A program made the position numbers and the translations under genes. Below are positions 3,066 through 40,253 of a stretch of 40,253 bases of DNA, piece by piece; the first letter of the stretch is position 1; each line of letters opens with the position of its first letter. Under the pieces are notes generated by a model. The model was not told where the DNA came from. It saw only the letters and a list, made by a program, of their open reading frames with translations, and searched no databases. Source of the stretch: a virus (Duplodnaviria > Heunggongvirae > Uroviricota > Caudoviricetes); IMG/VR virus record IMGVR_UViG_2740892426_000004, positions 1-40,253 of that record; one strand, given 5' to 3'.

Positions 3066-3707
3066 TCACCCCTGCGGCGGTTCTGGCAGCGGCATCCAGT
3101 GGGTTACACCGTCAATTGGTTCGTCGTCGTCGTACTCCAATGCGGCCATATAGAACCCGTCACGACGAGAATAAGAAATCCCTGACATTACAATGCCATC
3201 CGAAACAACAATAATGTCACCCGTTTCTTCCGGCATTCGCTCACTACAGCTTATCCAACCATCCGGAATTACCGGAGAGTTGCCGGGTTCTTTAATGTGC
3301 AAGCGAGGCTCACCATCTTTTGGCTCAGGCCACTGGCGCTCCATGTTGATCTTCAATTTATCTTCCATAGCAGCGGTAATTTCAGCATCGCTGATGCCAG
3401 CACGGCGCTGTGCATCCCACAACAGGAACTGCATATCAGCCCACTCGCTGAGATCGTCAGGTTCGGCTGCGGCTTCCAGAGCCTCTTTTGAGAGGTGTTT
3501 CAGTGGACCAATGGGGCCAACGCAGCCAAATGTGGAGTCAGACCATTTGGCATGCTCGTGGCGAATCTGTTCGCGTTCCAGCGATGCCAGAGCAATTCGT
3601 GCCAGTTCTTCCGCTTCTTCTGCTGGCAGTACAACGTTGCTACCAGGTCCGTATGTTTCGCGCCACTGCTTGATTGTCAGCAGTCGCTCTTTGGTAATAG
3701 TTGTCAT
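3066..3707 (-). CDS. DUF550/DUF551-like prophage protein (213 aa)
   Basis: C-terminus ...THWMPLPEPPQG resembles DUF551 signature common in enterobacterial prophage early regions; ATGA overlap with upstream gene. Confidence 0.6.
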   Translation of the reverse strand: MTTITKERLLTIKQWRETYGPGSNVVLPAEEAEELARIALASLEREQIRHEHAKWSDSTFGCVGPIGPLKHLSKEALEAAAEPDDLSEWADMQFLLWDAQRRAGISDAEITAAMEDKLKINMERQWPEPKDGEPRLHIKEPGNSPVIPDGWISCSERMPEETGDIIVVSDGIVMSGISYSRRDGFYMAALEYDDDEPIDGVTHWMPLPEPPQG

Positions 3708-4219
3708 GCCGCGTTTCCTTCTTTCTTATTAACAATTACACCGTCATATATTTCATTAAGGTGCCCTCTCAACTCCATGCGCCTTAATGCAGATAACATG
3801 TAATCGCATTCAACCTGCTTATTTCCAGTAAATGGCTTATCGTCAGGATTACCCCAACAGCAATTGCCCTTTGGCCACCCATGTACTTTCCGTACTCTTC
3901 CGTTAACAACGTGAAGTAATCCCCAGCCAGGTGGTAAATCCTCAATTGAAATAATCCCCGGCTCACTAATAAAGAATCGCCAGTCGCCCATTCCAAGAGA
4001 CGGATTTTTACGAAAACGCTTTTTTCTATCTGCCAACAAGTCAGCACGAGAACACTTCGCCTCTATCAGGCATGATGCTGAATTTCTGAATCCCATAGCA
4101 TCTGGCTGTTCTCCGGTACTGGTTACAGCTATAAAGCGGTCATGAAAACAAACCTTGAACCCGTTGCGCTTAAGGAACTTGTACGCAATCTGACAGAGTT
4201 CGCTGTGTGTTAACGCCAT
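3704..4219 (-). CDS. hypothetical protein with PD-(D/E)xK-like motif (putative nuclease, 171 aa)
   Basis: Motif GEQPD...(23 aa)...LIEAKCS; strong AGGAG RBS; function not established. Confidence 0.5.
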   Translation of the reverse strand: MALTHSELCQIAYKFLKRNGFKVCFHDRFIAVTSTGEQPDAMGFRNSASCLIEAKCSRADLLADRKKRFRKNPSLGMGDWRFFISEPGIISIEDLPPGWGLLHVVNGRVRKVHGWPKGNCCWGNPDDKPFTGNKQVECDYMLSALRRMELRGHLNEIYDGVIVNKKEGNAA

Positions 4220-4220
4220 A

Positions 4221-4949
4221 TCACTCTCCTTTCCCCTGAAGCATGGCGTTGCTCCGCTCTATACCATCCAGCGCGATTCGCAGTGCCTGAATTGTGGTAA
4301 TGCTATCGTTTGGGGCTATTCCATATCGCTCGAATACAGCGATATGACCGCGCATAATCTCAGGCGTAAGCTCTTTGTAAGCATAAGCAAGCGACCCTGA
4401 TGCATTATCCGGCACTACCGGCGATGGCTGTTTAGCTTCTAAATCAGCTATTCTGTCAACCACGGCATCGACAGCATCTGAAAAGCCGAACCAGTTGCTC
4501 CACTCCGGCCTGTTACCGGTTGCTGCAAAGTACATATCATCTAAAGCAGACTCAGCATGGTCACGCTCATTGATGAGTTGCTCTTCGCTTTTCTCCAGTT
4601 CAGCAATACGCTTACTTCCATCCGAGATAACACCTTCGTAATACTCACGCTGCTCGTTGAGTTTTGATTTTGCCGACTCCAGTTGTTTTGTTAGTTCCGC
4701 AATACGGCAAACATCGTTGATACGCGTTTCCTCTAATGCGTTGATCTCATCCAGTAGTGCCAAAGCAACCTTTGGATTAAAGGCAGCAATAAATTCAGCG
4801 TTGTTTTTCAGAACGTGTTGCGCAATGGCCTGACTACTTAGTCGGACCTCATAACCACGTGCGCCACGGTGTGGTTTATATGAGTCCCAGTCTCCCCACG
4901 TTGCTTTCTCTGCCGCCTCACGCAGTGCCTGGTAATTAATTTTGGTCAT
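4221..4949 (-). CDS. hypothetical coiled-coil protein, possibly Ead/Ea22-like (242 aa)
   Basis: Long ORF with central heptad-rich region; position and size typical of Ea22-like early-left proteins. Confidence 0.5.
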   Translation of the reverse strand: MTKINYQALREAAEKATWGDWDSYKPHRGARGYEVRLSSQAIAQHVLKNNAEFIAAFNPKVALALLDEINALEETRINDVCRIAELTKQLESAKSKLNEQREYYEGVISDGSKRIAELEKSEEQLINERDHAESALDDMYFAATGNRPEWSNWFGFSDAVDAVVDRIADLEAKQPSPVVPDNASGSLAYAYKELTPEIMRGHIAVFERYGIAPNDSITTIQALRIALDGIERSNAMLQGKGE

Positions 4950-4950
4950 A

Positions 4951-5250
4951 TCACATCACCCTGAAGCCGTTGCATTTACGTAAGAAATCGCAGATATAGC
5001 CCTTCATTTTTTCATGCCAATCTCGATCATTCCCATTGCACCAACCATCAGGTGGAGTCCAGTTTTCTATCAGAGCAGCCATTTTCTTTGCTTTCGCCGG
5101 AGTAGCTGTTGCGGTATCGCAGTAATGACGAGTGTCAACAAACTTATCCATGCCATCGATATCAAGTACGCAAAACCATGTGTGATTCGGCATTTCAACA
5201 GATGGTATTTGTTGCCCACGTCGACGTTTATCAATAAGACATACAGTCAC
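4951..5250 (-). CDS. hypothetical protein (99 aa, GTG start)
   Basis: GTG start with AAGGAGG RBS 6 nt upstream; GTGA overlap with upstream gene. Confidence 0.5.
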   Translation of the reverse strand: MTVCLIDKRRRGQQIPSVEMPNHTWFCVLDIDGMDKFVDTRHYCDTATATPAKAKKMAALIENWTPPDGWCNGNDRDWHEKMKGYICDFLRKCNGFRVM

Positions 5251-5615
5251 TGGTTGCCTCCTTTACGTAGCTCGGCGGCAAAAGCTACTGCGTGATCATG
5301 ATGTTCAAGTGTGTATGCACACTCCGCAAACATCTCCACCCCCTGCGCCCGTACTTCAGCCAGGAAAGCATCGGTGGCTGGGGTTTCCGTGAAGTTGTCC
5401 TCCCAACCGTAGTACTCCTGACGACAGAAGTTATTAAATTCCTTCTCCGACTGTTTAAGCGCCGCATTCTCCGCTGCCAGCGCCGCGCACTTGGCCTCCG
5501 CTTCAGCAAATTTACGCACCAGATATTCAGCGTTTGTTTCGTTAACCTTTAAATCTCGTGGGATGCATTTACCTTTCAGAAATCCATCCATCTCAATTAG
5601 TGACATTTGTTTCAT
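5247..5615 (-). CDS. hypothetical protein (122 aa)
   Basis: Start placed at [12 protein letters not shown] (ATG 5615) giving ATGA overlap with upstream gene stop and GGAG RBS; track ORF 5247..5633. Confidence 0.5.
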
Positions 5616-5776
5616 TTCTTCCCACTCCGCCACATCGCATTCAGATATTTGTTGTCATTAACAGAACCGAAACTCTTTCTCTTAAGCAATTCCTCTCTCG
5701 ATGGCATTGGCTTTACGCGTTGGCGAATAATCATTTCTGCCGGAAGAATGCCGGGATTGTATGCAAGTCCTCTCAT
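5612..5776 (-). CDS. hypothetical small protein (54 aa, start uncertain)
   Basis: Track ORF 5612..5929 overlaps neighbour; start MRGLAYNPG (ATG 5776) has GAGG RBS 8 nt upstream. Confidence 0.4.
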
Positions 5777-5786
5777 GGTAAATTCC

Positions 5787-6083
5787 TCAGTCATTACTGA
5801 TAGCGCCATAGCGTGAGCGGTAATTACGCAGGCGCGGGTCGATATATTCAGGGAAGTGGGTATATGTGGCTTTGCGGAATGGTCGGATTGATGTCTGGTA
5901 AATTCGCTCGCGTTCTTCTTTCTCTGCAAGCCATACGCAGTGGCGAAATTCCTTTTCCTCTTTTGTTTCCTGCGGTAGCGACATTATCCGGTCGTAGTTT
6001 TTCCTGAATTTATCCAGCACCTCCGATACGGAATTGCCGGAACAGCGGTGCGGGTCATCCGCACCATACAGAGGCGCTGGCAT
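5787..6083 (-). CDS. hypothetical protein (98 aa)
   Basis: ORF with AAGGA RBS 8 nt upstream of ATG 6083. Confidence 0.5.
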
Positions 6084-6106
6084 AATTAAATCCTTATTTT
6101 TCTGAA

Positions 6107-6490
6107 TCAGAATGGGATGGAATCGTCGTATACAGGGGTGTTCTGCTGGTTACTACTTTGCTGCTGCGGGCCATTTCCTGAAGCTGCAAATCCAATCTTT
6201 GCATTCAGTAATTCAAGAGTGATTGATTGACCATTTTGCCCCTGATAAACATCAACCCTGATGTTTTCTCCGGTAATTTCCACAATGCCACCTTCAACAA
6301 GAACACTACGGTAGTAATCCGCTTGCGCTCCCGGCTTGGCAAATACAACGGCGCTGTAGTTTGTCCATTCTTTCTTTTTTGTCTGGCGATCGTAATACTG
6401 AACGCCAGCACGGATGTTGAATCCGATATTTTCCCCGGCCTGAAACTCTCTTGCAGGTTTGTTTAGTCTTACAGTAATCGAATGTGCCAT
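6107..6490 (-). CDS. single-stranded DNA-binding protein-like (127 aa)
   Basis: C-terminal acidic tip ...VYDDSIPF typical of SSB; start ATG overlaps erf stop (TAATG); track ORF extends spuriously into erf. Confidence 0.6.
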   Translation of the reverse strand: MAHSITVRLNKPAREFQAGENIGFNIRAGVQYYDRQTKKKEWTNYSAVVFAKPGAQADYYRSVLVEGGIVEITGENIRVDVYQGQNGQSITLELLNAKIGFAASGNGPQQQSSNQQNTPVYDDSIPF

Positions 6491-7095
6491 TAAGCAGTCG
6501 CTCCTTCTAATTCGTCTCGTCTGATGTTGTAAACGTCCTGCGCTTTGTGCTGCTCCGGTGTGCCTTCGAGCATCTTCCACGCTTTGGCGAAAGCCTGTTT
6601 AAGCTCTTCTACGGTGTTTTTCTGCATTGCTGCGTCAGTGAATGCTTTTAGAACCTGTTCAGGTGTAGGTGATGGTTTTGATTGCTTTGCTGCTGCGTTC
6701 TGTTGATGTTTATGCTCGTCTGTATCTGCATCTTTCGCATCATCAATGCCGAACAAACCATTGAGGCAATACTTGCGTGCATAAGAGCTTGTAGCTCCCG
6801 TAACTTGTGCAGAATCCATTCCTTTCTTGCTTTCTTCCTCTCGTGCTAGTGCGGTTGCCGTATGACTGTTTTCGCCATCGGTAATAGTTGCCGTGGCTTT
6901 CACGTAATACCGATCACCAATCAACACAACTTCATCGCTGATTGATAAAAACAGGCCATTAAGCAGCGGCTTAACGCCTTCAAGAATATCTTCGCAGCTT
7001 CTGTATTTATATTTACCGAATGAGTTGTACTGATTCTTTGGCGCGTTCAGATTCTCCTGAATAGCTGCCAGTCTTGCGTAAAATTCTTTGCTCAT
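6490..7095 (-). CDS. erf: Erf-family single-strand annealing recombination protein
   Basis: MSKEFYARLAAIQENLNAPKNQYNSFGKYKYRSCEDILEGVKPLL... recalled high similarity to P22 Erf; start taken at MSKEF (ATG 7095). Confidence 0.85.
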   Translation of the reverse strand: MSKEFYARLAAIQENLNAPKNQYNSFGKYKYRSCEDILEGVKPLLNGLFLSISDEVVLIGDRYYVKATATITDGENSHTATALAREEESKKGMDSAQVTGATSSYARKYCLNGLFGIDDAKDADTDEHKHQQNAAAKQSKPSPTPEQVLKAFTDAAMQKNTVEELKQAFAKAWKMLEGTPEQHKAQDVYNIRRDELEGATA

Positions 7096-32259: not shown

Positions 32260-34427
32260 TGGCTAAAGCATGGAAAGATGTTATCGCTTCTCCACAGTAT
32301 CAGGCGTTAACTGAAAAACAGAAAGCACAGGCTCAAGCGCAATATTTTGATGAGGTTGTTGCCCCTAAGGCTGGTGACAAATGGGCTGAAGCAAGAGATC
32401 AGTTTTATGCAGCATACCCTCCGCCTCAGCAGCAGAAAAAAGAACCATCATTGATGCAACAAGCTGGTGATTGGCTCACAGGTGGTCAAAGTGCAGGGCA
32501 AATTGCTGAACAGGCTGGTCGTGGTCTGGTAAACATACCATTTGACGTATTGCAGGGTGGCGCAAGTCTGATTAATGCAATCAGCCAGGGGCTTGGTGGC
32601 CCCAAGGTTTTGGATGATGTTTATCGCCCTGTCGATCGACCGACAGACCGTTGGGCGCAAGCCGGTGAAACATTTGGTGGGTATCTCCTGCCAATTGGCA
32701 CAGCGGCAAAAGCTGCTGGAGCGACAGCAAAGCTCGCAGGAGACATCGGTTCCGCAGGAAACATGATTGCAGGTTCTCTTGCTGATGCTGCAAATCAGGA
32801 GGGCGACTTTGCACAAAATGCTGCCATTAACGGTGGTATCAATATTGGTGCTCAGGGGATACTTTCTGGGGCTGGAAGGATCTTAACCTCTAAATCACCT
32901 CAAGTTCTTGGTGGCGGGGCAATAAATTCCGCTGCTGATGTTTCGAAAATGGCAAAGTCTGGTACAGGAAGAGAGATTATTGCCAGACAGTCAGCTAATG
33001 TGTCAGACGAAATAGCAAAAGCAGCAGATACTGCTGGAATAGATATCAACGCATTAACTCCTGGCATGAGATCAGGTAGTCGTGGTCTTGCTCAGGCGGA
33101 GGGGATTCTGGCGTCAAAGCCCGGAATTACACAGGATGCACACACCAAAGCATTCAGTGAAATAGAGTCGAAATTTAACTCAGCATTGGATGAGTTTGGG
33201 GCTGAAGCAGGAACTGCATCAGAAAAAAGTGCAGCCATAAAACAAAGGGTTTTGGCAAGTATTGATAAAATGAAAAATTCAGAAAAGGCCGCATGGGATA
33301 GCGTCCGCTCCACGATGCCTGACGCAAAGGCCAGAATGTCAAACCTGAACGCTACAATTCAGGGTGATATTTTGGCTGGCATGCCGCTAACTCCTGAGAT
33401 GAAACAATTCGCATCTGCTTATGCTAAAACTGGTAAAAAAGGAATCACGTTTGATGCCATGAAGGCATGGCGAAGTAAACTTGCTGACGCAGAGCAGAAG
33501 TATATAAGGTCTGGTGAGGCAAATACGGCAAGGCGCATGGCTGAGCTTCGTGATGCAGCAACGGAAGATATGCGCATAATGGCTCAAAATGGCGGTTTTC
33601 TTGATGACTGGCAAAAAGCTAATGATCTGTCAAAGGCAAGATTTACAGCACAAGAACAGGCTGAAGCAGCGTTTGGTAGAGACCTTGCAACTGATCAGTT
33701 GGTAACTGATGGATCTAAGGCGTTACAGGGTTCAGCAAAAAGTGGAACAGGTCAGTTCCATAAAATAATAAGCGCCCTACCTGAGTCGGAACGCGCGCCA
33801 GCAATTGCATCAATATTACAAGATGCAATGTCGCAAGGGGTACGCGGAGGTAAGTCTGAAGAGGCTGGAATTAAGCATATCGCGACTATTCTTACCCCAC
33901 AAAACGTGAAGGCAATTAGTCGATATTCTCCAGAACTTGGCAGGATTACAAGTTCATACGGAGAACTTGCACGAGCAGCAACAAAGCCACTTCGATATGT
34001 TGAACAGACAGGGCGATCTATGCCAGCCATTAGCACTCTTGAGAATGGCCTTCATCCAGTTTTAGAGAGCGCATTGTCTGGCGCTTTTAGAACTACTGGC
34101 ACTATCGCAGGGTTCTCTGGAGGAGGCGTTATTGGAGCAATAGCGGGTGGCGCTGCAGGTGGGGCAATTGATGCAATGGCAAAAGGAGCGATAGCGAAAT
34201 TATCCGCAACTAGAAGCGGTCGTTACGCTATTGAAAAGGCTGTTCAAGAGGCAACAAAGGCAGTTAAGGTTGGGGCAAGTGATGGTGCATTAGCGGCGGC
34301 GGAACGCAGATTTATGGCAAATAAGGCCGCCGTAAAAGCAATACGCGAGGCACTAGGAAACGAAGAGTTCCAGCGTTTAGCAAGAGCTGGAATTGTGGCA
34401 TCGCTAAGCGGAATGGCACAGGAGTAA
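32259..34427 (+). CDS. ejection protein (P22 gp16-like)
   Basis: 722-aa Ala/Gly-rich ORF, last gene of ejection cluster. Confidence 0.7.
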
Positions 34428-34757
34428 TTAGTCATCCATGGATGGATTGAGCTTATCTCGTGTTGATGTGGCAATTTTCCCAACATTTTTCAACCAAGAT
34501 TTTAAGAAGGATATGTCGTCCTTAATATCATGAATATCCTCATTCTTTATACGATCAACCTTATCCTCTAAGCTCTCTATAGAACGCTCAATGCTAGACA
34601 GAGAGATTTTTAAGTCCCCTTGCTCACGTTCCAGTGAGGATTTGAGAGCACAATATTCGTTTTCTAGAATTCCTATTTTTTTTGATAGAGAGTGCATTCG
34701 ATACTCATACACCAAACCAGAAACGACTAATGCAGCCAACAGAAACCATTCAAGCAC
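34428..34757 (-). CDS. hypothetical membrane-anchored coiled-coil protein (110 aa, GTG start)
   Basis: AAGGAGG RBS 5 nt before GTG; N-terminal hydrophobic helix LEWFLLAALVVSGLVYEY then heptad-rich region; abuts gp16-like stop convergently. Confidence 0.5.
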   Translation of the reverse strand: MLEWFLLAALVVSGLVYEYRMHSLSKKIGILENEYCALKSSLEREQGDLKISLSSIERSIESLEDKVDRIKNEDIHDIKDDISFLKSWLKNVGKIATSTRDKLNPSMDD

Positions 34758-34787
34758 ACCAACCTCCTTAGTTTTGAGCAGGATACC

Positions 34788-35153
34788 ATGAAAAAAGTTA
34801 ACATTGGAAACGTACCAAAGATGCTCGTTCCGCTCTTTGAGAGCGGTACAATTGTGTTTTGTAGAGACTTTCCAGAATGGCAACGCCTGCATCAAAAACT
34901 TGGTGTGGACGTGCAGGACTCGGATGCCAACGGAGCGTCTCATACAATGAGCAGCGAGAATGGTGTTTTGCATGTGATAGGCGTGTTCAATGGCAAACTA
35001 TCTACTATTGCCCATGAGTGCGCTCACATGGCATTCGATATCTGCTCAAGGGTCGGTGTTGATGTTGAACCAGGAAGAGCCAACGAGACTTACTGCTACT
35101 TAATGAGCAGGCTTGTTGAGTTCTGCGAGCGACATATCAAAAAGCCGGAGTGA
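34788..35153 (+). CDS. hypothetical small protein with HExxH motif (121 aa), putative minimal zinc metallopeptidase-like
   Basis: Motif STIAHECAHMAFD; AGGA RBS; divergent from 34428-34757 with 30-bp spacer. Confidence 0.5.
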   Translation: MKKVNIGNVPKMLVPLFESGTIVFCRDFPEWQRLHQKLGVDVQDSDANGASHTMSSENGVLHVIGVFNGKLSTIAHECAHMAFDICSRVGVDVEPGRANETYCYLMSRLVEFCERHIKKPE

Positions 35154-35166
35154 CCCGGCTTGATTA

Positions 35167-35346
35167 TTACTTTTTGCTGTCTGGAGTTCGCTTATCTAAT
35201 ACCCAGCCATGACCTGGCTTTGTTGTTGGTGGAAGCCTTTCGTTGTCCTTGACGGTGGCAAAATTGTCTTTCTTACCGCCGCGCGGGCCAACTTCTTGGT
35301 ATATTCCGCCGTTTTTTCCTGTGTTTTCACCTGGTTTTTTCGCCAT
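35167..35346 (-). CDS. YjzC-like small protein (59 aa)
   Basis: MAKKPGENTGKNGGIYQEVGPRGGKKDNFATVKDNERLPPTTKPGHGWVLDKRTPDSKK; GAGG RBS 7 nt upstream. Confidence 0.5.
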   Translation of the reverse strand: MAKKPGENTGKNGGIYQEVGPRGGKKDNFATVKDNERLPPTTKPGHGWVLDKRTPDSKK

Positions 35347-35445
35347 GATATACCTCAACATACACCCGTTATTGGGCGATTAAATATTGATCTCATTTTA
35401 TAAGTAGTCAATATGGCCCAGGTAAATGCAAAAATTAACCTACCG

Positions 35446-35697
35446 TCAGGTGGGTTTTTTGTACAAATCCTTCAGCGTATCAAACACCATCTTCTTAACA
35501 AGGTCGGACTGCTCATCAGCGATGCGTTCCGCATCGTCTCAATAGCCTGAAATTTTGGATGGCTTTGATACAGCATCAGTCACTATCTGAACTAATTCTG
35601 AATTAAGAGAGCGGCCATTGGATTTGGCTCGCTGTTTTAGTTTTTCCTTTAATTCGTAAGATAGCCGCAGATTAAATTGCGGGTCATCTCTTCCCAT
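35446..35697 (-). pseudogene. mnt: mnt (Mnt ribbon-helix-helix repressor) interrupted by in-frame TGA at codon 53
   Basis: MGRDDPQFNLRLSYELKEKLKQRAKSNGRSLNSELVQIVTDAVSKPSKISGY-stop(TGA 35539-35541)-DDAERIADEQSDLVKKMVFDTLKDLYKKPT; both halves match recalled P22 Mnt; uninterrupted part 35539-35697. Confidence 0.7.
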
Positions 35698-35760
35698 TCT
35701 TGATGCCTCGCTTTTGTGAGTGGATCGGCATCTTATTATCTGCTGGTTGCATCCTCAATA

Positions 35761-35775
35761 AGATCACGGTGGTCT
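35761..35775. promoter_or_regulatory. Mnt operator-like near-palindrome AGATCACGGTGGTCT
   Basis: Resembles recalled P22 Omnt core (AGGTCCACGGTGGACCT), located upstream of mnt. Confidence 0.45.
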
Positions 35776-35974
35776 TGTTGTATGATTGATAATGTTTCAC
35801 TGCAGCCACACTGCGGCGATTCCTTGTATTTGGAGCAAATTAAATGACAGATATTATAAATAGGAATTGTTATTTAATAATGTTTGAAAATAAAAATCAT
35901 GGACGATAGGAATAAAGGTAGTACTTGTTTTTATTTTTGTAAGTGACGCATTAAGCGCATAAATAATATGCCTG

Positions 35975-36003
35975 TTGATCAAGATTCTTGAGTATTGTAA
36001 AAT
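35975..36003 (+). promoter_or_regulatory. candidate sigma70 promoter upstream of tailspike
   Basis: -35 TTGATC, 17-nt spacer, -10 TAAAAT in AT-rich region. Confidence 0.35.
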
Positions 36004-36127
36004 AATCGTTTTGTTCATGTTGCATGGTTTTTAAATGAATAGAAGGTTATTTTTCAAAACAATTGCATCTTTGTCTGCAGTCATTCCGTTTTCTTCAATA
36101 TCTAAATCTTCAAACAGGATGACTAAT

Positions 36128-38713
36128 ATGCCTGATATAACCCCAAATGTTGTGATAGGTATGCCATCGCAACTCTTCACAATGGCTAGCTCTTTTAAAA
36201 CCGTAGCAAATGGAAAAATTTATATCGGTAAGATTGACACAGATCCGGTAAATCCAGAAAACCAGATTCCAGTATATCTGGAACGAGAAGATGGTACTTA
36301 TGTTCAGGTGCCACAGCCAATCGTTATCAATGCTGCTGGATACCCGGTATACAACGGACAGATTTCCAAATTCGTTACCGTGCAAGGCCATTCTATGGCT
36401 GTTTACGATGCATATGGTACGCAGCAGTTCTATTTTCCGAATGTGCTTAAGTACGATCCAGACCAATTAAGACAACAATTAGAAGACCCGGAAGGTGCTA
36501 AAAAATATCATGAATTGCAGATGTCTCGGTGGCGTGATGACGCTGACCCTCGCGGATGGGGAGCAAAAGGTGATGGCATCACCGATGACACATTATCTTT
36601 TCAAGAGTTAGAAAAACAAATCACAGGAAGGATTGTTGATCTAAGGGGTAATACATATATAACAGATCAAGTTTTTGATGGAAATAAGTATATAAATGGC
36701 TATTTTCGCACAGAGAATCGATTACTGCCAGATGCTGATTTTACTGAAAAAAGAATACAAACTATAAAAAAGGGGATGTATACAGGTTTCAGACCTTCTA
36801 CTCCTAATCATGTTAAGTCAGGGTTGCGACTGGCAACAATTAAAAATACTGTCATACAGGGTGCTGTTCTTGATTATTATGACAGTGTTCTTTATTGCTT
36901 GGTAAATGTGAGTGGCAGCGTTAGTTCTGGTGACGAAGTTAATAAAGTTGTTGCTTATAATTGGTTTGGGAATGAAGAGTTAACTCCTCTTTGGGAGACT
37001 AAAGGTAGTAGAGAATTAGGACATCAATGTCTTGGTTTAACCATAGGGCGCGTTGGTTTTCGTAACACAAGAGGCCAGTTACAGATATGGGGGTTAGCTG
37101 GCACAGCTAAAGGAGAGGATCGCGCAAAGTATATCACCAGATTCACCCCTACTGATGGTGGTGAAATTGAACCAGAGTTTTTTCTCATATGGGAAGATGG
37201 TTACGAGAATCAGGTAAATGTTTTATGCACCGACCCTATGAGTCGATGGCTGATTACTACAGCAAAACGTTATGTTGGCCCTGGTGAGAGCCCATCAACA
37301 CCAGATCAAATTCGCTATTATGTAAAAGTATTTGATACCAGCAAATTTATTAACCCGCAGGCGTACAATTACGATTATCGTAATGAAGCAACTTTTGAAT
37401 TTGAAATTGCCGATTTTGTGAGGGATATGCAAACAGTTGCGTGTGACGGTACTGCTATTTATTTTTGTCAGGCTGGATCTGCATATTCTTCAACCAGAAA
37501 ATATTTGCATCAGTACACACTTGATGGTGTTTATCTTGGGGTGCAGCAAATACAGGCAGGTGCAGGAAGAGCCTATGAAATAGCAGATCCAAATGATACC
37601 GGAACGCCAGATGTTAGCAATCTTACATATGAACCAGAAGCAATGTTTTTCCGTATGATTGCAGGTGGGTATGACCTTGTAATGGGGAATACAAATGGCA
37701 TACCAGATGGTGATAGTGGGCGAGAAACTACATTTTACACATTAATGCCACAACAGGTAATGCATGTAAAAACAACATCAAGAAATCAGCCTGGTATTAT
37801 CATTGATTCAACCCATGATATTGTCACTAACTCTGGTTTGTTAAGCCTTGGTAAAATTATGCCTGGTGGTGAAGTCATAGAGCAGGCAAACCTTGATGAC
37901 AAAGGATTCACTGTTTCGAGGGCAACAACACAAGCCGCCCGTTATGATGCAAAGAATAGGTTACGGAATGTAACTTTTCATGTTAGTGAAAAAGGTGATA
38001 CCGGTATTTATGACTTTACCAATGCTCAATGGATATTTAAATCTCCCTTATCAACATCTTCATATTCGTATATCGGTCAGTCAGCGGAGGTTAATGGCTA
38101 TATAAGTGCTAATAAAGATAATACGTCATCATGTGGGACATCATCTAAACGGTGGACGCAAGTATATGCAACTAATGGGGCAATAAATACTTCAGACCAG
38201 ACATTGAAAACAAAGCCACTGACAGTAGAGCAACTTTCAGAAATCATGGAGGTGGATCAGGATGCAATTCTTGACGCATGGGGTGACGTAAATATTATCG
38301 TTTACCAGTGGTTGTCCGATATTAAGGCTAAAGGTTCGGATACTGCTCGTTGGCATTTCGGAGCAATTGCACAGCAGGTAAGAGATGCGTTTCTTGCAAA
38401 GGGGATAGATGGAACAAGATTTGGCTTGCTATGTCATGATAAATGGGATGATGAGTACCAACCTGTAATGGCACAGCGCAAGGTGTCATTTATAGCTAAA
38501 TCCCCTGAAGGAGAAGACATCGTTCGCGAATACTTTGAAGAATACGATACTGGTGACACGGAACTGGTTGTACATGCTGGTGAGCGTTGGGGATTGCGTC
38601 CAGATGAATGTTTGTGGTTGGAGGCTGCATTCCAGCGAAGAAGGTGTGAACGCATTGAGTCTCGTTTAACAGAGCTTGAATTGATAATTAAAAAAGCAAA
38701 AGAGATAGAGTAG
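36128..38713 (+). CDS. tailspike protein: P22-type head-binding domain, GDG-motif central domain, C-terminal intramolecular-chaperone-like domain
   Basis: From [43 protein letters not shown] (recalled P22 gp9 N-terminus); AGGA RBS 9 nt upstream; central [11 protein letters not shown] motif; C-terminal ~170 aa from NTSDQTLK resemble S74-type chaperone domain; track ORF starts in frame at 36035 without RBS. Confidence 0.8.
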
Positions 38714-39001
38714 ATGGATAAAACCCCAATTCATCACGCACTTTGCGCTGTGGTCGCACAGGTACTGGTTGGTCTTTTTACCGGAAACTGGGCTTACGGT
38801 GCGATAGCCGGTTGTACGTTCTTCATTGCTCGTGAACACACCCAGGCAGAATATCGCTGGATTGAAATGTTCGGGCATGGCAAGCGAATGAATATGCCGT
38901 GGTGGGGCGGTTTTGATCCACGTGCATGGGATGTGGCAAGCCTGATGGATTTTTCTTTCCCAATTATCGGATGCTTATTGGTATGGATTCTTGCATCGTA
39001 G
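38714..39001 (+). CDS. hypothetical small membrane protein (95 aa)
   Basis: Two hydrophobic segments; start immediately follows tailspike stop. Confidence 0.45.
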   Translation: MDKTPIHHALCAVVAQVLVGLFTGNWAYGAIAGCTFFIAREHTQAEYRWIEMFGHGKRMNMPWWGGFDPRAWDVASLMDFSFPIIGCLLVWILAS

Positions 39002-39037
39002 CGAACACATAATTACCGATGAAACAAAACTGAGACA

Positions 39038-39071
39038 CACAAAGCTTTGCACTGGATTGCAAGGCTTTGTG
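39038..39071. other. inverted repeat between convergent genes (CACAAAGC ... GCTTTGTG)
   Basis: 8-bp perfect inverted repeat with 18-nt loop containing a nested TTGCA/TGCAA repeat. Confidence 0.35.
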
Positions 39072-39095
39072 CTATCCGATGGTGTTTAAGTTTCC

Positions 39096-40253
39096 TCACT
39101 CCGCCTTTTCATCAAGCCAGTCCGCCCACCACTGCATCATTTCTCTGCGCTTATCGAGATACTGAGCGTGGTTGTAAATCCCGCGTACAGATCCGCCGTT
39201 GGCATGTGCCAGTTGCACTTCAATAGCGTCAGCAGGCCATTCGTGCTCGTTCATAATCGTGCTGAATTCATGCCTGAATCCGTGACCGCTTTCCAGACCT
39301 TCATAGCCGATTTGTTTGATCACAAGCAATACCGCGTTCTCGCAGATTGGCTTCTTCTTATCGTTGCGCCCGGCAAAAACAAACTCTGAGACTGGTTTGG
39401 TGATTGAGCTTAGCGTAGTGAGAAGTTCAACCACCTGGTCTGACATCGGGACCACATGAATTTTGCGTCCCTTCATCACACTGGCGTCGATGGTGATAAT
39501 CCTGTTTTCAAAATCGACGTTCTTCCATAGCATGGAACGAAGCTCTTTTGTTCTTAGGGCTGTGTAGCGTAAAACTTTGGTCGCAATGAGCGATACGATA
39601 CTTCCTGAAAATGTTGCAAGTGCTTTGTTGAATGCCGGGATCTGGTCTGCAGGAAGAAACGGGAAGTTCTTCTTGCGGTATCCCTTCATGGCGTCAGCAA
39701 GGTCAGGTGCCGGGTTATATTTAGCCCTACCAGTGACAATAGCGTAACGGAAAACCTCGCCGCATCTTCTGCGTGCTTTGTTGGCTCGCTCCATTGCGCC
39801 GCGATCTTCAAATCTGCGGATTACTTCCAGCAGTTGCATCGGCTCAATATCCTGAATCTCAAGACCGCCGATGATGGGTAAAATGTCGTCATCAAACATT
39901 TTGGCAAGTTCATTTGCATAGCCTACTGACCAGACTTGCTTCTTGTGCTCGTACCATTCCTTGTAAATGGCGCTAAAGGAATTGTTGTTAGACGAAGCCT
40001 TTTTCGCTTTTACCGGATCGATGCCAACCGAGATGTCTTTCCTCGCGGTCCATGCTTTATCCCTTGCCTCCTGCAAAGTCATAAGCGGATATTTTCCAAC
40101 GGTCAGGATTTTCTCCTTACCGTCAATCTTGTAGCGAAGCTGCCATACCTTTTTCCCTGATACAGGGACATAAAGGTACAGGCCATTACCATCGAGTAGG
40201 CGGTATGGTTTTTCTTTCGGCTTTGCTGCTTCAATCTGCTTAACGGTGAGCAT
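39096..40253 (-). CDS. intS: P4-type tyrosine integrase IntS (KplE1/CPS-53 family)
   Basis: 385-aa ORF MLTVKQIEAAKPKEKPYRLLDGNGLYLYVPVSGKKVWQLRYKIDGKEKILTVGKYPL... recalled near-identity to E. coli IntS; start codon at the last three bases of the window. Confidence 0.85.
   Translation of the reverse strand: MLTVKQIEAAKPKEKPYRLLDGNGLYLYVPVSGKKVWQLRYKIDGKEKILTVGKYPLMTLQEARDKAWTARKDISVGIDPVKAKKASSNNNSFSAIYKEWYEHKKQVWSVGYANELAKMFDDDILPIIGGLEIQDIEPMQLLEVIRRFEDRGAMERANKARRRCGEVFRYAIVTGRAKYNPAPDLADAMKGYRKKNFPFLPADQIPAFNKALATFSGSIVSLIATKVLRYTALRTKELRSMLWKNVDFENRIITIDASVMKGRKIHVVPMSDQVVELLTTLSSITKPVSEFVFAGRNDKKKPICENAVLLVIKQIGYEGLESGHGFRHEFSTIMNEHEWPADAIEVQLAHANGGSVRGIYNHAQYLDKRREMMQWWADWLDEKAE

Follow-up and report, generated by a model that had tools for sequence, protein, structure and literature searches.

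The tailspike gene and its start

Tailspikes set which bacteria a phage infects, and enzymes used in typing and capsule stripping are obtained from them. The DNA analysed here, the whole 40,253 nucleotides (nt) of IMG/VR virus record IMGVR_UViG_2740892426_000004 (the window), carries a modular tailspike gene of a P22-like (Lederbergvirus-type) Escherichia coli prophage, the product of which is a receptor-recognising protein (Table 1). The gene lies where P22-like tailspike genes do, behind the genes for the ejection proteins and the immI (mnt) region: in the near-identical A3 prophage DNA-transfer protein genes and an Arc/Mnt gene lie upstream, and the Lederbergvirus JEP4 has the same order. 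The RefSeq entry WP_032229949.1 (‘phage tailspike protein’) differs from the window protein at 2 amino acids (aa).

The open reading frame (ORF) containing the gene begins at an in-frame ATG at 36035, immediately after a TAA. The working start is almost certainly ATG 36128, however, because AGGA lies 8 nt upstream of it whereas ATG 36035 has no Shine-Dalgarno sequence. The start that PGAP assigned to WP_032229949.1 is at the position equivalent to 36128, which agrees with the view of the earlier note on this DNA, made from the sequence alone, that the 31-codon extension from 36035 lacks a ribosome-binding site and is probably untranslated.

Table 1. Features of the tailspike locus, in window coordinates
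Feature	Position	Strand	Basis or remark
mnt-like Arc-family repressor gene	35446-35697	minus	Arc-family ORF 35539-35697 (Pfam)
Conserved P22-like ‘boundary sequence’	35797..35856	+	canonical ribosome-binding site and relic start
Relic short ORF, 21 codons, MTDIINRNCYLIMFENKNHGR and stop	35844..35909	+	translation
AT-rich insert	35857..36127	+	27.7% GC over 271 nt; 284-nt excess over CUS-3
Sigma-70 promoter-like site, TTGATC-17 nt-TAAAAT	35975..36003	+	faces the tailspike gene
Long ORF	36035-38713	+	contains the tailspike gene; ORF search
In-frame 31-codon extension	36035..36127	+	most likely a conserved untranslated leader
Shine-Dalgarno sequence AGGA	36116-36119	+	8 nt before ATG 36128; unchanged in all variants
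Tailspike coding sequence	36128..38713	+	861 aa; ORF and Pfam
Head-binding (virion attachment) domain, residues 1-113	36128..36466	+	PF09008; structures 7sg7, 2vky, 8tvr
5′ junction of the exchanged cassette	36482..36564	.	DNA identity to JEP4, E4, ZH063 and CUS-3 ends
Endosialidase-type N-terminal extension, residues 146-193	36563..36706	+	PF12218 sub-threshold; CUS-3 identity
Predicted five-bladed β-propeller, receptor-recognition domain, residues about 205-540	36740..37747	+	
β-rich stalk, residues about 541-688	37748..38191	+	strands at residues 572-639 in AlphaFold model 2
C-terminal intramolecular chaperone/Peptidase_S74, residues 689-861	38192..38710	+	PF13884; 3gw6
Downstream 95-aa ORF (ORF95)	38714..39001	+	first base after the tailspike stop; outside the cassette; phrog_1443

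The central domain as a five-bladed β-propeller

AlphaFold models of the monomer fold the central domain of the tailspike as a five-bladed β-propeller, with ~20 antiparallel strands across residues 233-538 in the first full-length model. The top Foldseek matches for this domain were the receptor-binding proteins of the staphylococcal phages phi11, 80alpha, P68 and NF5 (E about 1e-11), followed by other five-bladed or WD40-like propellers and, weakly, endosialidase NF. When a sequence profile of the family was compared with the PDB, the P68 tail-fibre platform (E 1e-6) was the sole match for the central domain, and distant members of the family pass the threshold of PF21311 (‘phage 5-bladed beta-propeller receptor binding platform’). 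These data support a five-bladed propeller homologous to the phi11/P68 platform. Across 32 family members N190, G298-H299-Q300, D440, Y445, G467 and E504 are invariant, and W321, D416, F425, Q435 and E502 nearly so. No description of a five-bladed propeller tailspike in E. coli phages was found in the literature searched.

The earlier note had proposed a different centre, a right-handed β-helix polysaccharide depolymerase signalled by the motif GDGxTDD. The motif is indeed present, and in its vicinity the family profile resembles polygalacturonase-like β-helix proteins and the Sf6 and phiAB6 tailspikes, although these matches are weak and local (E 1e-5 to 1e-2 over about 20-95 profile positions). 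GDGITDD, however, occupies residues 148-154 (36569-36589), upstream of the propeller, within a segment that is 69% identical to the CUS-3 endosialidase tailspike (residues 1-197), and it therefore belongs to an endosialidase-type N-terminal extension rather than to a β-helix cap. Because endosialidase tailspikes carry GDGxTDD too, the motif does not discriminate β-helix spikes. Pfam places no pectate-lyase or β-helix family on the central domain, which the structure models do not fold as a parallel β-helix, and we regard the β-helix model as contradicted and very improbable.

Flanking domains

The N-terminus is a P22-type head-binding domain, as had been proposed. The Pfam family Head_binding (PF09008) matches residues 1-113 over its full length (profile positions 1-113 of 113), well above its curated threshold (E 4e-61; 204.6 bits, cut-off 24), and residues 1-118 align from residue 1 with the structures of Sf6 gp14 (7sg7) and the P22 tailspike. 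In the extension that follows, PF12218 (End_N_terminal) reaches 24.4 bits over residues 146-193, under its cut-off of 26.3, and tblastn gave 47-51% identity to endosialidases across residues 122-196. The predicted local distance difference test score of this extension is 82-91 in AlphaFold model 2.

At the other end of the protein, similarity to chaperone domains was looked for and found, which bears out the proposal that the last ~170 residues form an intramolecular chaperone domain. Peptidase_S74 (PF13884) matches from residue 689 (E 4e-10, 40.3 bits against a cut-off of 22), and the chaperone structure of the K1F endosialidase, 3gw6, aligns with residues 648-851 (E 2e-32 to 2e-33), so that homology extends over the whole domain. 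Ser689 (38192-38194) aligns with the S911A position of 3gw6 and Lys694 (38207-38209) with the conserved lysine; the two are five residues apart (S689-D-Q-T-L-K694), and the consensus INTSDxxxK is kept in the family members that have an S74 domain. Such a Ser-Lys pair is the catalytic dyad of self-cleaving S74 domains (PMC3742443), and it is intact here. The motif NTSDQTLK, which the earlier note had placed at about 38192, is present, but that position is the serine of SDQTLK, the asparagine lying at 38186. Between propeller and chaperone the stalk is modelled with low confidence in the monomer beyond residue 639. Over its final 40 residues it is a homologue of the last part of the endosialidase stalk, the alignment with 3gw6 beginning at residue 648.

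An exchanged receptor cassette

Comparison with related phages and prophages places two junctions in the DNA. Similarity stops at 36482-36564, within the gene, and that to JEP4 resumes at 38723, just past the stop codon (3′ junction 38713-38723). On these alignments propeller, stalk and chaperone are therefore exchanged together, as one cassette of about 36500-38713 (residues about 120/145 to 861). The cassette has about 40% GC and the remainder of the prophage 47.8%; GC-skew analysis of the region gave no informative break. The propeller occurs at 61-69% identity behind three adaptors, the P22 head-binding domain, Tail_spike_N and the T7 tail-fibre N-terminus. Both the junctions and the adaptors agree with the earlier description of a mosaic tailspike with an exchanged receptor module.

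The propeller family is rare, with 14 clusters in a set of 5.8 billion proteins and 26 representatives (E <= 1e-3) among 1.84 billion. When residues 121-691 (571 aa) were compared by tblastn with 50,697 phage records, none covered 80% of the query, and the matches listed were confined to about its first 76 residues. The same search of phage records with the distant homologue P0013 returned anchor and chaperone matches only, apart from weak and partial ones in phages Pollock and Henu15, and an NCBIfam search of the tailspike gave no match. Another family member, P0021 (1678 aa), carries its PF21311 propeller in the middle of the chain, behind an endosialidase-type N-terminal extension and ahead of a weak C-terminal match to GDSL lipases/esterases; this architecture suggests that multi-activity receptor-binding proteins may be built around the propeller.

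Hosts of the spike

The spike is present at about 99% identity in 14 complete genomes, within different P22-like backbones, with or without arc and ant, at sites adjoining bio, dacD and torT. The lysogens examined first looked O7 (sequence type ST484), and the O7 hosts comprise E100341, H1827/12, AST19, AST205 and EC0026B; the spike also occurs in the O120 strains A3 and A26 and in the O15 strain MLI114. Under the usual rule there is one tailspike type per O serogroup (PMC10408124). With O120 and O15 hosts as well, this rule does not hold here, and the specificity of the spike is probably not tied to O type. Because near-identical copies are carried by O7, O15 and O120 lysogens, the target is more likely to be a capsule or other glycan independent of O type than the repeat of one O antigen; possible explanations are a receptor that is not O-specific (capsule, colanic acid or enterobacterial common antigen), broad specificity, or replacement of the O antigen after lysogeny. 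As the earlier note had cautioned, specificity cannot be read from the sequence.

The P22-like prophage of the O7 strain E4 has a 92% variant of the insert described below, followed by a protein of 910 aa (4267-6999) that has an unrelated receptor domain and, at its end, likewise an S74 chaperone; the tailspike gene is closely followed by an acyltransferase gene. O7 hosts are thus targeted by at least two spike types.

The AT-rich insert and the relic start

Upstream of the gene lies a conserved ‘boundary sequence’ (annotated bsq1) with 86-93% identity to the DNA preceding the tailspike genes of P22, HK620, epsilon34 and CUS-3. In these phages it adjoins the tailspike gene and extends into the first codons. 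In the window it ends with GGAGCAAATTAAATGACAGATATTA, the canonical ribosome-binding site followed by MTDI, which leaves a relic of the canonical tailspike start, ATGACAGATATTA, at 35844-35856 (ATG 35844). Homology to the P22-like relatives breaks after the boundary sequence and resumes 284 nt later, and the insert therefore lies 13 nt into the ancestral gene. The short relic ORF is not conserved as coding sequence, because a stop cuts it short in the ZH063 variant.

The segment is, as the earlier note observed, strongly AT-rich: GC content is 27.7% at 35857-36127 and 30.2% at 35797-36127, compared with a window mean of 47.1% (standard deviation 4.4 for 300-nt intervals). The lowest such interval of the whole 40 kb starts at 35841, and 0.08% of intervals are equally low. 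Besides JEP4 (98%), 44 of 5426 complete E. coli genomes carry the insert, which occurs in three sequence variants. It precedes at least three unrelated receptor domains (JEP4, E4 and ZH063), and it is therefore tied to the head-binding side of the gene and not to receptor exchange. This, together with a cassette junction inside the gene, runs counter to the suggestion that the AT-rich segment marks the swap of the receptor module. The insertion would then be a separate and older event that landed 13 nt into the original gene, left the relic start behind and supplied a new ribosome-binding site and start (MPDIT); the insert now most likely serves as a conserved untranslated leader, possibly with its own promoter.

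The evidence for a promoter at 35975-36003 is weak: both hexamers are invariant in 4 sequences, the spacer differing at 5 positions, but 12 conserved hexamer positions in four related sequences are statistically meaningless. The predicted RNA fold of the insert is not significant (single-sequence z -1.1), with almost no covariation in the four-sequence alignment, and an Rfam scan of 34000-40253 at E <= 1 returned no match, which dismisses an intron or a known RNA. A minus-strand ORF of 54 aa (35854-36018) was rejected as coding; it has no family match, and a 5-nt indel breaks its frame in E4 and ZH063. The sequence TAATATGCCTG occurs twice, 160 nt apart, at 35964-35974 and at 36124-36134, the second copy including the working start codon, and this duplication may be a trace of how the insert or the new start arose.

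The insert might instead be the functionless remnant of a decayed mobile element, such as a free-standing homing-endonuclease cassette. At the corresponding site of phage Kapi1 lies an intact HNH endonuclease gene (3559-4059, minus strand), bordered on one side by the relic ATGACAGACATTACC of the tailspike start and on the other by the recoded start now in use (MPEQLYNVV); Kapi1 shares with the window the relic ATGACAGA(C/T)ATTA. The product of this gene is apparently a free-standing homing endonuclease directed at the conserved 5′ end of tailspike genes of the P22-like type, and the canonical ATGACAGACATTACCGCAAACGT site is a candidate target. A relic start and insert here and an HNH gene at the same point in Kapi1 together suggest that the first tailspike codons are a recurrent insertion or homing site, albeit for inserts between which no homology was detected. 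The foreign GC content also fits a remnant, as does the lower divergence of the insert between prophages than of the adjoining coding DNA, as if it had spread recently. Against this, tblastn with the Kapi1 HNH protein found no match in the insert and blastn aligned the flanks only, which disposes of a remnant of that gene; the minus-strand ORF, the only sizeable one, is broken in two variants; and there are no terminal inverted repeats, only short AT-rich repeats expected by chance, so that an element like a miniature inverted-repeat transposable element or insertion sequence was also rejected. The most conserved part is the 93 nt that run up to the working start and contain the ribosome-binding site, and such conservation points to a present role as a leader. 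We consider a decayed element doubtful.

The 31-codon extension

The extension upstream of ATG 36128 probably does not code for part of the protein. Its frame is open in all four variants aligned, and its DNA is 97.8% and 90.3% conserved between variants, compared with 83.9% and 83.1% for the head-binding coding DNA. The synonymous and non-synonymous changes, by contrast, number 1/1 and 4/5 in the extension and 40/11 and 34/16 in the adjacent head-binding domain. A ratio near 1 combined with high conservation is in keeping with an untranslated leader under constraint, or with an element that spread recently, and not with translation of the extension.

The encoded peptide resembles a twin-arginine signal peptide, having RRxFxK (found in all three variants), a moderately hydrophobic stretch and small residues at SIS/K. 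It is conceivable, but most improbable, that a long isoform is made from ATG 36035 in which MNRRLFFK, the hydrophobic stretch and SIS/K form a twin-arginine export signal. The frame is open and RRLFFK retained in all variants, a promoter-like site lies about 30 nt upstream, and the depositors of JEP4 annotated the long ORF. Yet this start lacks a Shine-Dalgarno sequence, a predicted hairpin pairs the ATG region with upstream sequence, the substitution pattern is not protein-like, PGAP uses 36128, and an added N-terminal segment would occupy the hub-binding end of the spike. Derivation of the extension from a real exported protein was discarded: a search of the 5.8-billion set with a 40-aa query that includes the extension found no protein having three 5-residue words in common with it, and NCBIfam gives no match for it. 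A bolder version would make the 284-nt insert a portable promoter-plus-leader cassette, through which the prophage expresses the tailspike independently, the long isoform taking folded spike by the twin-arginine route to the cell envelope, where it trims the surface glycan of its own lysogen. We think this extremely unlikely; if true, the exported spike would be a new form of receptor-destroying superinfection exclusion. For annotators, the long ORF from 36035 is easily mis-called.

Neighbouring genes

ORF95 is hydrophobic and about 90% conserved beside unrelated tailspikes (JEP4, 611R6 and HZ41). It has no Pfam or NCBIfam match and, from its sequence, may be a membrane protein expressed in the lysogen. 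In A3, E100341, MLI114 and SW070919 a block of insert, tailspike gene and ORF95 (about 99% identical) ends the prophages at ybhB-bioA, dacD or torT, and the host genes follow ORF95 without an intervening integrase gene; in the window, ORF95 is followed by an integrase gene at 39096-40253 on the minus strand. The mnt-like gene has a nonsense change at 35541, CGA to TGA (R53*), relative to the 83-aa protein of strain A3, and its product is therefore 52 aa long, without the C-terminal part. No arc or ant gene follows it in the window; in MLI114 and SW070919 the mnt-arc-ant set is complete.

Function of the propeller

The domain order of the tailspike points to the following working model. Residues 1-113 would fix the trimer to the tail hub and be followed by a linker and the endosialidase-type N-terminal extension (residues about 120-197); the propeller would recognise a host surface glycan; and residues about 541-688 would form a trimeric β stalk, the trimerisation and folding of which the chaperone would nucleate. 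The chaperone would then remove itself by autoproteolysis catalysed by Ser689 and Lys694, so that about 688 residues remain in the mature spike. Support is good for both the architecture and the chaperone step, and we infer the autoproteolysis from the intact dyad.

To our knowledge, all characterised P22-like tailspikes (P22, Sf6, HK620, epsilon34 and CUS-3) destroy their receptor. Because each of them degrades its polysaccharide receptor we lean, if only slightly, towards a propeller that both binds and degrades a surface polysaccharide. A short-tailed phage must, moreover, get through the layer of O antigen or capsule. The residues that the family keeps invariant are polar or acidic (H299, Q300, D440 and E504, with E502 and D416 nearly invariant), many five-bladed propellers are glycosidases, and the flanking domains are those of an endosialidase, an enzyme. 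All of these points speak against a purely adhesive platform, in which the spike, like phi11 Gp45, 80alpha and P68, would be a fibre-like binder of a conserved surface structure. We think such a platform rather unlikely. In its favour, both the leading structural matches and the P68 profile match are described as receptor binders (PMC6795507), and the presence of one spike in hosts of three O types fits a conserved ligand. The earlier note had regarded a non-enzymatic binding fold as damaging to its own interpretation; the description of the relatives goes some way towards that outcome, whereas the glycosidases among five-bladed propellers point away from it. That the propeller family is a new class of polysaccharide-degrading enzyme acting on a glycan shared by O7, O15 and O120 strains is a tentative idea that we consider unlikely.

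Overall, we judge it likely that the protein combines a P22-type anchor, an endosialidase-type extension, a propeller and a self-removing chaperone, and that the upstream insertion was a separate event. Several points weigh against this. The window protein itself reaches no Pfam propeller model (PF21311 gave no direct match at E <= 0.01), and the link to the propellers is transitive and structural. The structure models are of monomers, with residues 640-688 of the stalk poorly predicted. In the papers checked the closest solved relatives are described only as binders of wall teichoic acid. Carriage by a prophage does not establish the present host surface as the receptor, because O-antigen loci are frequently exchanged. 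The upstream region shows no enrichment of promoter-like sites, with 8 where 11.4 are expected, and the hallmarks of mobile elements that were looked for in the insert (Rfam, Kapi1 HNH and repeats) were not found.

Most work on enterobacterial podophages assumes β-helix depolymerases, each matched to a single O antigen. In the window spike the framing parts are a P22-type anchor and an endosialidase-type chaperone, between which lies a rare five-bladed propeller related to the receptor binders of Gram-positive phages, and the spike occurs in prophages of at least three O serogroups. Should the propeller be a true enzyme it would be a new depolymerase scaffold; should it be a binder only, a P22-like phage can use a non-destructive receptor domain.

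Relation to known systems

The closest parallel is the CUS-3/K1F endosialidase NF family, which shares the genomic slot, a propeller at the centre, a stalk and a self-cleaving S74 chaperone; CUS-3 also has the P22 head-binding domain. In CUS-3 the likeness includes the linker and N-terminal extension with G(A/I)GDGxxDDT, within the 69% identity noted above, and the last 200 residues are 35% identical. The centres, however, are unrelated in sequence: that of the window spike is of the five-bladed phi11/P68 type, whereas CUS-3 has a six-bladed sialidase propeller with an inserted β-barrel. Pfam finds no End_beta_propel, End_beta_barrel or End_tail_spike match in the window tailspike, which thus lacks the sialidase propeller, barrel and endosialidase stalk domain of GH58, and there is no sign that polysialic acid is its substrate.

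The staphylococcal receptor-binding proteins (phi11 Gp45, 5efv; 80alpha, P68 and NF5; PF21311) are about 13-15% identical to the window spike and have another N-terminal anchor. The window spike belongs to a P22-type podophage of a Gram-negative host and has a stalk and S74 chaperone instead of their ‘tower’ domains. The neck appendage of the Bacillus phage GA-1 is the best predicted viral structure match (Foldseek E 9e-20, TM 0.43) and also ends in an S74 chaperone (3gud), but it is 16% identical, attaches differently to the virion and serves another host. The β-helix tailspikes of P22, Sf6 and HK620 have a homologous head-binding domain and the same gene position. Their receptor domains, in contrast, are right-handed β-helices without S74, while the window spike has a propeller with S74. 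The protein is thus a modular tailspike of a known type, the unfamiliar part of which is the five-bladed propeller between a P22 anchor and an S74 chaperone.

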